Shown here piece after piece: positions 48,219-52,505 of a stretch of DNA of 64,000 nucleotides. Position 1 is the first letter of the stretch, and every line of letters begins with the position of its first letter. The translations under genes were made by a program, and so were the position numbers. This DNA comes from Alphaproteobacteria bacterium (lineage in GTDB: Bacteria > Pseudomonadota > Alphaproteobacteria > Rs-D84), in contig JAFYUU010000001.1 in NCBI GenBank assembly GCA_017549445.1, positions 16,332-80,331 on the forward strand. The letters run 5' to 3'. The notes beneath the pieces were generated by a model. The model was not told the DNA's origin. It was given only the letters and a program-made list of their open reading frames with translations, and did no database searches.

Positions 48219-50382
48219 AGTCGCTTATTAGTTGGCACACACCGTTCACATCCTTGTAACTTGAATTACATACACATATCCCATTGGGGTTGCGTTTGGC
48301 ATTGGGGTCACATACACGCAAACACTGGGTTCCCCATGGCTCATATCCCGTCAAGCATACACAGTGTGCATTGACATATCCAGATGCCCCAGCTGTCCCA
48401 GCAGTGGCGGTATATGCAGAATTATCTGGGCACAGTAATGATTCATAGAACATTTCAGATATACAGGTGACATAGGCACCCTCGGTCGTTTCGCCTGAGG
48501 CAGGTGTGCAAACAGAACCACTTGACAGTTCTGGTGGGCCGGCAAAGATTGCATATCCGCATGTCAAGGCGACATTTCGGCATGCACCACGCATTACCTT
48601 GTAGATACTGTCAATACTGGCACTGGATGTCCAGGCGTTGACCTGGGTCACCTGTTGATTATAACAGGTGGCAACGTCCAACATACACGATGATGCATAT
48701 TCGGAAATAATGCTTTGCTGGGCAGAACGAATATTGGTCATGGCACGTTGAACATAATTTAAGACAACATCGTTGTATGGTTTATATTTACCCTTGTCTG
48801 TATAGGTATAACGCTGGCACTTTTCCAAAACAGGACGACATAGACCATTGTCAGTCACTTTTTCGCCAGTGCCGATTTTTTCCATCAAATAACGAACCAC
48901 ACAGATACCATCATCGCCATGTTTGTCCGCCGTGGCATCTGCCTTGCAATTGGTTTCATTAATGCTTGTTTTTAATGATTCCTGCAAAAATCCACTGTCT
49001 ATGGCGGCATTGTTATAGTTTACCATAAATTCGGTAATATTTGTGATGTTCTGACCCAGAACAACCTTGCCATTTTCATCGATGTAAATTTTAGTCGGGT
49101 CAACGCACTTGTAATATTTTTCGCCACAAACCATTTCGTCACGCATACAGTTGTCCAGTGCAGATACACACGCCTTGGCATCGTATTGATTTTTGTTTTG
49201 CAGAACCGCCAGACGGGCCTTTTGCAGCATACGTTCAGCACTGCGAACATTGGACACCAATGTTTCGTTCATCTTACGCAGACCCTTTTCATAGGCAATA
49301 CAATCCTTGTCGATTGCCAAATCGTAATTGCCCGTAATCTGGTTTGATGTGGCACCAGCTTCTTTGCATTGATTCAAGATTGTGTTGCAACGACGTTTGG
49401 CGGCATTATACAACTCGCGTCCACGCAGGTTCGAGAAACTGTTGGTGGTGGTGCCCAGATTCAGAAATTCTAAACTGAAAATATCTGATGCCTCGGCAGA
49501 AAAGTCCAAATTCATATCCAGACCAGTATAGGTATCGGAATATGTGGTGGCCACCTTGGGGTCTTTAATCAATTCTTCGATTTCTTCCAGCATATTGCGG
49601 GTTTCGGTGGTGTCCGTTTTGCCAGACAGTTCTTCTTCGGCCTCGGTCGCATTCATAATGGCACGAATTTCGTCCGCAGATAATCCAACATAACGAATCC
49701 GCTGGGCAACATCGTTTAATTCAGTGTTGGCGTTTTTAACTGCCTCTTCCGATTTGGTGTATTTAGATAAATTTGCACTGCAACTGCAACGGCCCTGGTT
49801 CGCATCAATTACATTACAGAACTGGTCCATGCAATCGTTATACTGTTCCTGACAGGTTTTGTTCAGTTCGGCATTTACCTCTAAAAACTCTTTGGCCTGG
49901 GCCATGCTGTCACGGGTGGCAACCTTGGTGCTGGCACGGGTTTGGATTTGTTCGTCTATGTTCGAACCAGTTTGGGTGTCTGTGCCGGCAATCTTGGCAC
50001 GACCGCCAACCTCGGCAGTAGAGGGACGCAGAACAACACCCGCACGACGCAATGTCGGATTATTATTTATACTGGCATCGGATACACGGGTGTTGCGGCC
50101 AACCGTGTTCACAATTTCTGATAATGATGTGTTGCCAACCGATGAAATGCGGGACACAACCGAACTGCGAGAAGATGTAGTGGGCGATGCGTTAACGTTT
50201 CTGGATATTGCACTGCGTGATATTGTTGATGCATCAGATGTTTTGCGTTCAGTTGACACAGAACGTGTGGCGGTGCCAGTTGCACGGGTATCTGTCCCGG
50301 GAATAACACGTGAAGCACCCGCCCCATAAACGGACGGTGCAATTAAAACCATCGCGAAAAAACATGTCGCAAATCTTTTCAT
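48217..50382 (-). CDS. Secreted cysteine-rich protein, paralog A (unrecognised family) with EGF-like C-terminus
   Basis: 721 aa. Signal peptide (FFAMVLIAPSVYGA), an S/T/R-rich low-complexity N-region, then a ~500-aa domain with ~30 Cys (my manual count) that starts with CQEQYNDCMDQFCNVIDANQGRCSC. Confidence 0.8.
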   Translation of the reverse strand: MKRFATCFFAMVLIAPSVYGAGASRVIPGTDTRATGTATRSVSTERKTSDASTISRSAISRNVNASPTTSSRSSVVSRISSVGNTSLSEIVNTVGRNTRVSDASINNNPTLRRAGVVLRPSTAEVGGRAKIAGTDTQTGSNIDEQIQTRASTKVATRDSMAQAKEFLEVNAELNKTCQEQYNDCMDQFCNVIDANQGRCSCSANLSKYTKSEEAVKNANTELNDVAQRIRYVGLSADEIRAIMNATEAEEELSGKTDTTETRNMLEEIEELIKDPKVATTYSDTYTGLDMNLDFSAEASDIFSLEFLNLGTTTNSFSNLRGRELYNAAKRRCNTILNQCKEAGATSNQITGNYDLAIDKDCIAYEKGLRKMNETLVSNVRSAERMLQKARLAVLQNKNQYDAKACVSALDNCMRDEMVCGEKYYKCVDPTKIYIDENGKVVLGQNITNITEFMVNYNNAAIDSGFLQESLKTSINETNCKADATADKHGDDGICVVRYLMEKIGTGEKVTDNGLCRPVLEKCQRYTYTDKGKYKPYNDVVLNYVQRAMTNIRSAQQSIISEYASSCMLDVATCYNQQVTQVNAWTSSASIDSIYKVMRGACRNVALTCGYAIFAGPPELSSGSVCTPASGETTEGAYVTCISEMFYESLLCPDNSAYTATAGTAGASGYVNAHCVCLTGYEPWGTQCLRVCDPNAKRNPNGICVCNSSYKDVNGVCQLISD

Positions 50383-50435
50383 ACTGTGTATAAATTATAC
50401 CATAAAATTACCGACAATAATACGGGAAAATTTAA

Positions 50436-52505
50436 TTATTCATTAAACATTTCATTCCAATACACATCTGACAGACATTCCAGATATGCATTGCGTTGGG
50501 CAACCGAACCGGCGGTGGCACTTACTGCGGCCGGACAGCCCGTTGTGCGTTCGCCCGTATTCGGATCTGGCATCGCAACACCATCAAATACCGCATAGGC
50601 ACACGTCAGTGCTGTATTGCGACACGCACCACGCAAAACTTTCAAGACCTGATCCTTGGTCCCACTGGCAGACGAGGCAGATATCGCAGACATTTGGGTT
50701 TCATAACATTCGTTCACGTCCGACAAACACGTTGATGCGTATTCGGCAATGATGTCAAACTGATGCTGGCGAATTTTGGTCAATGCGTGTTTTATGTATG
50801 ACACAATAACCTGGTTATAAGGTTCATATTTGCCCCGTGTGTCATAGGTGAACTGCTGGCATTTATCCAACACGTCACGGCACATACCTGTGTTTTTTTC
50901 TGTGCCAATTTTATCCAGTAATCTGTGAACAATACACGCACCGTCATTGCCAGAGCCGGGACGTGTTGATGTGGCAGAACAGTTGGTATCATCAACCTTG
51001 AGTTTATGTGCGGTTTGCAGGGACGTTTGCGATACGGTTGATGCATCAAAAGATGCCATAAAATCGGTAATATATGTTATGTTCTGGCCCAGAACAACCG
51101 TGCCATCGGCGGCAATGTATCGATTGGTCGGATCCAGGCACTGGTCATATTTTTCGCCACAAACACCAATGTCCTGCATACATTTATCCAGTTCCGCAAC
51201 ACAACCCGCAACATCATACTGGTTCTTGTTTTGATAAACCGCCATACGTGCCTGTTGTAAGACCTGGTTGGCACTGCGGACATTTGCCAGAACTGTATCG
51301 TTTTGCTGTCTTAACTTGTCCGCATAGGTTTCGCATGCAGAATCAACGTGCATATCATAATTTGCCGTGATTTGGGAAATTGTGGCCCCGGCTTCTTCGC
51401 ATTGTGTCAGTATGTTTTCGCAACGGCGACGGGCAACATTGTATAACGACACACCACGCAGATTGGATATACTGTCAGATGAATTTCCGCCCAGAATACC
51501 AGACAGGTCAATCAGGTTTGATGATGCAAAGATATCTAAATCCAGCAGATTAGAATTCTCTTCGGCATAGACACCAGATGTGGTAGAAGGATCAACAATT
51601 TTGTCCTGGATTTTTTCCAGCATCTTTTTGATTTCGCTGTCGTCGTGAGATGAAGACATTTCTTCTTCGGCGATGGTTTCGCCATAGATATTTTTAATCT
51701 CGTCCGCAGACATGCCAACATAACGCATACGGTTGGCAACATCGTTTAATTCAGATGTCGCATCGGTTGCCGTACGAGATACACGGGTGTATTCAGAATA
51801 ATTAGAACTGCACGTGCAACGCCCCATCTGGTCATCAAGGACATTACAAAACTGATCCATACAAGTGTTATAACGTTCCTGGCACGAAGAATTTAATTCA
51901 GCACGAATGTCCATGCGTTCACGGGTCTGGGCCATGGTTTCGGGCGGCAATTCGGTTTCTGATTCTTTTTTCTCGAACAGGCGTGGAACGATTACATTGG
52001 CGGCCCGACTGGATATTTCACGAATTTCTTGGTCCATGTTGGAACGTGTCTGAATATCGGTGCCGGCAATCTTGGCACGACCGCCAACCTCGGCAGTAGA
52101 GGGACGCAGGACAACACCCGCACGACGCAATGTCGGATTATTATTTATACTGGCATCAGATACACGGGTGTTGCGACCAACAGTATGCACCGCAGTATTC
52201 AGATTGGCACGTGCCTGGGCGGTGCCTGTGGCGGAACGGGTAATTGTTGATGCAATTTGCACCGCATCTGATACAGGTGTCGCATTGTCCGAGACACGTG
52301 TTGGCATCACGGACCGTGTGATTATATTTTTCTGGGGTGCGGTCGCAGTGCGTGTGCGTGTCACAGCAGAATCCGACACATCTGTCCGTGTTTCGGCAGA
52401 TTCATCTGTTATTTTTGTGGTTGGCAAAACACGTGATGGTGTTGCACCATAGACGGATGGTGCAAATAAAGCAATCGCGAAAAAACATGTCGCAAGATTT
52501 CTCAT
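50436..52505 (-). CDS. Secreted cysteine-rich protein, paralog B
   Basis: 689 aa, collinear with paralog A. It has the same signal peptide type and the motif CQERYNTCMDQFCNVLDDQMGRCTC. Only 53 nt separate it from paralog A. Confidence 0.8.
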   Translation of the reverse strand: MRNLATCFFAIALFAPSVYGATPSRVLPTTKITDESAETRTDVSDSAVTRTRTATAPQKNIITRSVMPTRVSDNATPVSDAVQIASTITRSATGTAQARANLNTAVHTVGRNTRVSDASINNNPTLRRAGVVLRPSTAEVGGRAKIAGTDIQTRSNMDQEIREISSRAANVIVPRLFEKKESETELPPETMAQTRERMDIRAELNSSCQERYNTCMDQFCNVLDDQMGRCTCSSNYSEYTRVSRTATDATSELNDVANRMRYVGMSADEIKNIYGETIAEEEMSSSHDDSEIKKMLEKIQDKIVDPSTTSGVYAEENSNLLDLDIFASSNLIDLSGILGGNSSDSISNLRGVSLYNVARRRCENILTQCEEAGATISQITANYDMHVDSACETYADKLRQQNDTVLANVRSANQVLQQARMAVYQNKNQYDVAGCVAELDKCMQDIGVCGEKYDQCLDPTNRYIAADGTVVLGQNITYITDFMASFDASTVSQTSLQTAHKLKVDDTNCSATSTRPGSGNDGACIVHRLLDKIGTEKNTGMCRDVLDKCQQFTYDTRGKYEPYNQVIVSYIKHALTKIRQHQFDIIAEYASTCLSDVNECYETQMSAISASSASGTKDQVLKVLRGACRNTALTCAYAVFDGVAMPDPNTGERTTGCPAAVSATAGSVAQRNAYLECLSDVYWNEMFNE

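Follow-up and report, generated by a model that had tools for sequence, protein, structure and literature searches.

We examined a 64,000-nucleotide (nt) stretch of DNA (here called the window; positions 16,332 to 80,331 of contig JAFYUU010000001.1, GenBank assembly GCA_017549445.1) from an alphaproteobacterium, in which two tandem paralogous genes, A and B, share a 122-nt tract of nearly identical sequence. The assembly comprises 763 kb in 19 contigs and is ∼64% complete. Gene A (48217 to 50382, minus strand) is an open reading frame (ORF) encoding a 721-amino-acid (aa), secreted, cysteine (Cys)-rich protein, and gene B (50436 to 52505, minus strand), adjacent to it, encodes a lineage-specific tandem paralog of 689 aa. 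Next in the row lies gene C (52605 to 54791, minus strand), a distant paralog with ∼27% local identity to A. The C-B-A group is flanked on one side by a pyruvate phosphate dikinase gene and on the other by genes for a dnaQ-like exonuclease and a UvrD-type helicase. Each of the three proteins consists of a signal peptide, a low-complexity N-terminal region rich in Ser, Thr, and Arg, and a Cys-rich body. The tract lies at 49982 to 50103 in A (minus strand; gene nt 280 to 401, codons 94 to 133/134, encoding VGRNTRVSDASINNNPTLRRAGVVLRPSTAEVGGRAKIAG(T)) and at 52060 to 52181 in B (minus strand; gene nt 325 to 446), and it is bounded by fixed differences between the two genes.

The two copies of the tract match at 119 of 122 nt (97.5%). 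An earlier reading of the window, made from the sequence alone (the sequence-only reading), had counted the same three differences, and all of them (A codons 95, 101, and 117) are synonymous changes at third positions. Outside the tract, a protein-guided codon alignment of A and B gave 57% nt identity (1059/1851) and 47% aa identity; the figure of about 70% first given by eye for the surrounding coding sequence was too high, so the contrast is larger than it had seemed. Identity was not similar throughout the full alignment: when the alignment was scanned in 122-nt segments, the best segment had 3 mismatches and the second-best nonoverlapping segment had 29, and in 20,000 shuffles of the mismatch positions the minimum never fell below 20 mismatches. 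Among codons specifying the same amino acid in both proteins, 37 of 40 were identical within the tract versus 159 of 286 (56%) outside it (Fisher P = 1.7e-6), and just 18 of 200,000 permutations reached 37/40 anywhere in the gene. Synonymous divergence (dS; Nei-Gojobori method) was 0.094 in the tract versus a saturated 1.78 outside. The edges of the tract are sharp, with dense A/B differences from gene nt 279 and 402 outward. A DNA search with the block and blastn searches with A, B, and C over the whole 763-kb assembly recovered the tract in A and B only, and these searches found no other conversion partner among the roughly 12 paralogs. Gene C lacks the motif described below and had no nucleotide match to A or B in the blastn searches; it is context only and stands outside the conversion. 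A second, weak A/B island, the only further one found, covers the signal-peptide codons (50300 to 50382 and 52423 to 52505; 78 to 82% nt identity over 68 to 83 nt) and is compatible with amino acid conservation.

The tract forms the core of a conserved peptide motif that runs past it on both sides, spanning codons 91 to 141 of A (49960 to 50112, minus strand) and codons 106 to 156 of B (52038 to 52190, minus strand). We delimited the motif from an alignment of 120 homologs, its invariant columns, and a codon table; its pattern is V.TVGRN.RVS.ASIN.NP..RRAG..LRPSTAEVGGRA.I.GT..QTGSN. Across these homologs, no other part of the N-terminal half is conserved nearly as well, which bears out the earlier suggestion that the peptide is a conserved motif. 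In the parts of the motif that flank the tract, A and B encode the same residues with different codons, upstream at T93 (ACG in A, ACT in B) and downstream at T134 (ACA/ACC), D135 (GAC/GAT), Q137 (CAA/CAG), T138 (ACT/ACA), and S140 (TCG/TCC). Since these codons differ at shared residues, B would already have carried a motif that had diverged from that of A, and of this motif the core alone was overwritten. Constraint on the amino acids does not, by this codon comparison, account for the nucleotide identity of the tract, because it would leave third codon positions free, yet A and B match at those positions inside the tract.

To follow the tract within the species, we compared 12 loci, namely, the window and 11 same-species loci from independent metagenome assemblies. 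All 11 further contigs contain the C-B-A locus and, within it, the same tract; they represent at least three naming styles or assemblers, and because of this recurrence the tract is not an assembly artifact. The strains differ by 1 to 3% in these genes (strain-to-strain dS, 0.02 to 0.08), and every locus retains the C-B-A order with full-length A and B. The comparison of the block across strains, which had been proposed as a check, gave identical tract boundaries in 12/12 loci, the differences at gene nt 279 and 402 that set them being fixed between A and B. The number of A/B mismatches between these boundaries is 1 in five loci, 3 in three loci (including the window), 5 in one, and 7 in three, and when majority states are compared, the two genes disagree at one site at most (nt 351). 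These 1 to 7 differences match the synonymous divergence between strains. The simplest history that these comparisons suggest begins with one conversion, shortly before the sampled strains last shared an ancestor, after which the two copies decayed independently. The conversion proposed in the sequence-only reading is thus supported and is recent relative to the duplication, but it is older than the common ancestor of the 12 loci. One tract site, gene nt 303, is C/T polymorphic in both A and B. Chance alone would produce about one such shared site (7 × 5 / 40), and one was found, so repeated conversion is not supported by this site.

The strain loci also bear on the possibility that the tract is an active recombination or phase-variation site, in which direct repeats 2078 bp apart drive frequent deletions, duplications, and domain swaps and are kept identical by repeated exchange. 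The geometry would permit this, as the repeats are direct and in frame and a crossover between them would yield an intact chimeric gene with the head of B and the body of A; the polymorphism common to both copies at nt 303 also fits. Nevertheless, the order and lengths of the genes are unchanged in all 12 loci, and all 28 catalogued protein variants pair an A head with an A-type downstream region and a B head with a B-type one. No A/B chimera was found in the assemblies, whether in the 12 loci or in the 28 protein variants of both clusters, and the 12 loci showed no deletion or inversion. Up to 7 of 122 tract positions differ between A and B in some strains, meaning that homogenization is not continuous, and a single shared polymorphism is the chance expectation. 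We therefore consider an active switch very unlikely, and the earlier suggestion of a recombination or phase-variation site found no support among the assemblies.

The history of gene B was assessed against related genomes. Genomes of the genus are roughly 0.9 Mb in size and each carry 10 to 17 paralogs of the secreted Cys-rich family, of which the motif-bearing gene is characteristically single copy. Among 121 genus genomes sampled, 109 carry the motif, 108 of them in exactly one copy, and two copies occur in this genome only. The same single-copy pattern was seen in 151 genomes sampled across the order and in seven genera of the family, where the motif-bearing gene is single copy in about 200 species genomes. 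No independent second species with two motif copies was found among the 121 genus genomes or the 151 across the order. A detectable motif is missing from about 10% of the genus genomes. By sequence comparison, gene A is the ortholog of the genus's single-copy motif-bearing gene, and A orthologs with 56 to 67% aa identity were present in 24 genus genomes. Gene B, on the other hand, had no ortholog outside its own species among 5.8 billion proteins or the ∼200 family genomes, its best match elsewhere in the protein set being 48% identical. In the closest relative tested (G014, with A at 67% aa identity), C adjoins A with no B between them, and three others (G083, G103, and G074) have a single A ortholog at 61 to 65% identity without the C-B-A synteny. 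In a further species of the genus (locus L034; G010:C6:4500-18000), a C ortholog lies between two giant A-like genes of 1504 aa and at least 1375 aa, which are 60% identical to each other and only one of which carries the motif.

In a tree built without the tract, B did not group with any A ortholog but fell outside all of them (bootstrap, 92), on a long branch. This position may reflect an old origin of B, or B may be a lineage-specific duplicate that evolves fast and is drawn outward by long-branch attraction. Outside the tract, A is nearer to its orthologs (56 to 67% aa identity) than to B (47%); within the tract, A and B are mutual nearest sequences, with 97.5% nt identity versus 63 to 76% to any ortholog. 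The tract is by these comparisons phylogenetically discordant with its flanks under either reading of B's origin. These data also allow us to weigh an explanation without any conversion, in which B arose by recent duplication of A, or as a mosaic with foreign DNA, and the tract is a remnant that escaped replacement. The occurrence of B in this species alone, across about 200 family genomes, does make the duplication lineage specific, and the branch leading to B is very long. However, a dS of about 1.8 outside the tract, in genes under purifying selection, is not something that fast protein evolution can produce, whereas replacement by foreign DNA would require two separate imports ending exactly at the motif core, one on each side, and no donor lineage closer than 48% was present among the 5.8 billion proteins. 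An origin of the tract without conversion is, in our view, even harder to credit than the active switch. Gene B is intact in all strains, and the ratio of nonsynonymous to synonymous divergence (dN/dS) among strains is 0.05 to 0.19 for A and 0.10 to 0.16 for B. By these ratios, both genes are under purifying selection, and B is for that reason taken to be a working gene.

We also compared the tract with its orthologs, with its own variation among strains, and with RNA folding predictions. Compared with 15 orthologs of other species in the genus, the tract was 63 to 76% identical at the nt level, and the same-codon fraction was 0.32 to 0.68 in the tract versus 0.42 to 0.50 in the rest of the gene. 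Among the 24 tract sequences from the 12 loci, 11 sites are variable, every one of them a third position; variable third positions number 7/40 in A and 5/40 in B, and the corresponding values outside the tract are 8.5% and 8.8%. The tract RNA folded no better than shuffled sequences (z = −1.46; 17 of 200 shuffles folded as well), and an Rfam scan of 48000 to 55000 gave no hit in the tract and three subthreshold hits, all outside it. Given normal divergence among orthologs, free variation among strains, a nonsignificant fold, and no Rfam match, these comparisons indicate that the tract nucleotides themselves are not constrained, and an RNA element, a binding site, or another sequence-level function is rejected; a structured RNA element in particular is ruled out by the fold score, the lack of an Rfam match in the tract, and the unconserved nucleotides in orthologs. 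The least probable of the explanations considered is that identity in both genes is enforced by a function of the 122 nt themselves, be it as an RNA element, a protein-binding site, or an antisense gene; nucleotide-level constraint, with an RNA element as an example, had been among the alternatives in the sequence-only reading. The nearly perfect identity, a long hairpin in the minimum-free-energy fold (−42.7 kcal/mol), and plus-strand antisense ORFs over both copies (49859 to 50329 and 52060 to 52452) would fit it, but those ORFs are unlike in extent and frame context in A and B, and variation at third positions is at least as dense in the tract as elsewhere.

Taken with these results, the tract is very probably the product of one short ectopic (nonallelic) gene conversion between A and B. 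We infer that the two tandem paralogs had diverged to saturation at synonymous sites when a single ectopic event replaced about 122 nt of one gene with the corresponding sequence of the other. What was transferred would have been the core of a motif under strong purifying selection in both proteins; as the same peptide is needed in both, the copy would have been harmless at the protein level and become fixed. The event would slightly predate the last common ancestor of the sampled strains, and both copies would since have accumulated independent synonymous changes at a normal rate. The route would presumably have been RecA-type or template-switch recombination between the neighboring copies. 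The direction from A to B is only weakly suggested, as B has no ortholog elsewhere that would show its state before the event.

Several points weigh against ectopic conversion as an explanation or complicate it. An event of this kind is beyond direct observation, and neither gene can be singled out as the donor. Outside the tract, A and B have a same-codon fraction of 0.56, somewhat higher than that between A and its orthologs (0.42 to 0.50), so an older, eroded exchange or a shared codon bias may also contribute. The polymorphism of nt 303 in both genes could reflect repeated conversion, although about one such site is expected by chance. Further, the two motifs were probably only about 70 to 75% identical before the event, which makes the start of recombination between them hard to explain.

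The product of gene A begins with a signal peptide, followed by a predicted-disordered N-terminal region that is rich in Ser, Thr, and Arg and contains the motif; the Cys-rich body that comes next is all-alpha, and the protein ends in a small, beta-rich Cys tail. In an AlphaFold2 model built from 49 sequences, the motif falls within a low-confidence N-terminal region (residues 13 to 157; predicted local distance difference test [pLDDT] score, <50), ∼20 residues ahead of the first long helix of the body, a position suggestive of a linear motif within disordered sequence. The body (residues 157 to 650) was modeled as all-alpha and Cys rich, with a pLDDT of about 90 over residues 400 to 650. A Foldseek search of the body model against PDB returned no match at E < 0.1, and the body may represent an undescribed fold. 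Proteins A, B, and C had no match in Pfam or NCBIfam, and a PDB sequence search with the family and motif gave nothing significant. Papers on Candidatus Enterousia deal with metabolism only and do not mention proteins of the A, B, or C type.

Variation among the strain loci was also seen in other parts of A and in C. Nonsynonymous strain polymorphisms are concentrated in the Cys-rich beta tail of A (residues about 655 to 721; window positions 48217 to 48400), with the variants RV/RL/RE, PN/TH, NSS/DSG/NSD, QL/QE/QK/QQ, and a final D/E. The tail looks like a diversifying tip, with the rest of A under purifying selection. In strain L028, a segment just upstream of this variable region has been replaced locally and includes an 18-nt insertion. 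In-frame tandem duplications of 6 and 9 nt (GCCACG and GCAGATGCC) at about 48930 to 48950 of the window (A nt about 1440) set strains L030/L031 and L033 apart from the window. The gene call for A starts at an internal ATG in 8 of the other 11 loci (711 to 717 aa), with the loss of half of the signal peptide; the upstream start (MKRFATCFFA..., window positions 50353 to 50382) is present in all strains and matches B and the orthologs. The called length of gene C varies among strains from 722 to 753 aa.

A more speculative proposal, which we regard as improbable, is that the motif is a docking or sorting peptide tying the secreted Cys-rich proteins to one common partner, such as an outer-membrane or cell wall component or an export device, and that selection favored fixation of the conversion since both paralogs must fit that partner. 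If so, the species, alone in having two motif-bearing genes, would use a single invariant anchor to display two distinct all-alpha bodies. Apart from this proposal, the tract marks the exact 40-residue core of a motif that is conserved and single copy throughout a family of uncultured gut Alphaproteobacteria with reduced genomes, and this core is well suited to a search for the partner of an abundant, uncharacterized family of secreted proteins. Annotators and phylogeneticists placing gene B should mask the tract. The mechanism itself, short-tract conversion between neighboring paralogs, is textbook knowledge, and the case is in that sense ordinary. It is, at the same time, unusually clean, in that the motif codons beside the tract provide an internal control and the 12 strain loci date the event. 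Of more interest than the conversion are its by-products, namely, a precisely delimited, family-wide motif and a motif-bearing gene that was duplicated in this species alone.

The A/B tract can be compared with three kinds of known system. The motif resembles short linear motifs in disordered regions, as the peptide of A is the best-conserved stretch of a low-complexity, predicted-disordered N-terminal region; unlike described linear motifs, it has no Pfam, NCBIfam, or PDB match. Segmental conversion is also known from antigenic-variation families of surface proteins, such as pilE/pilS and opa of Neisseria, vlsE of Borrelia, and msp2 of Anaplasma. Like these, A and B are tandem or clustered paralogs of exported proteins with a variable body, between which a short tract has moved. 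In the antigenic-variation systems, variable segments are moved often and conserved ones serve as anchors, whereas in A and B no chimeras or strain-specific mosaics were seen among the 12 loci and 28 variants, and it is the conserved motif that would have been copied, once. Ectopic gene conversion between bacterial paralogs is represented by tufA/tufB of Salmonella and Escherichia coli and by other duplicated genes under concerted evolution. The tract would share with tufA/tufB a nonreciprocal homogenization between two paralogs of one genome, and it likewise takes the form of a sharply bounded island of synonymous identity where both proteins are under the same constraint. It differs from the tuf genes and from rRNA operons, in which repeated events keep nearly the whole gene identical, in that A and B share a single tract of ∼122 nt that is already decaying.

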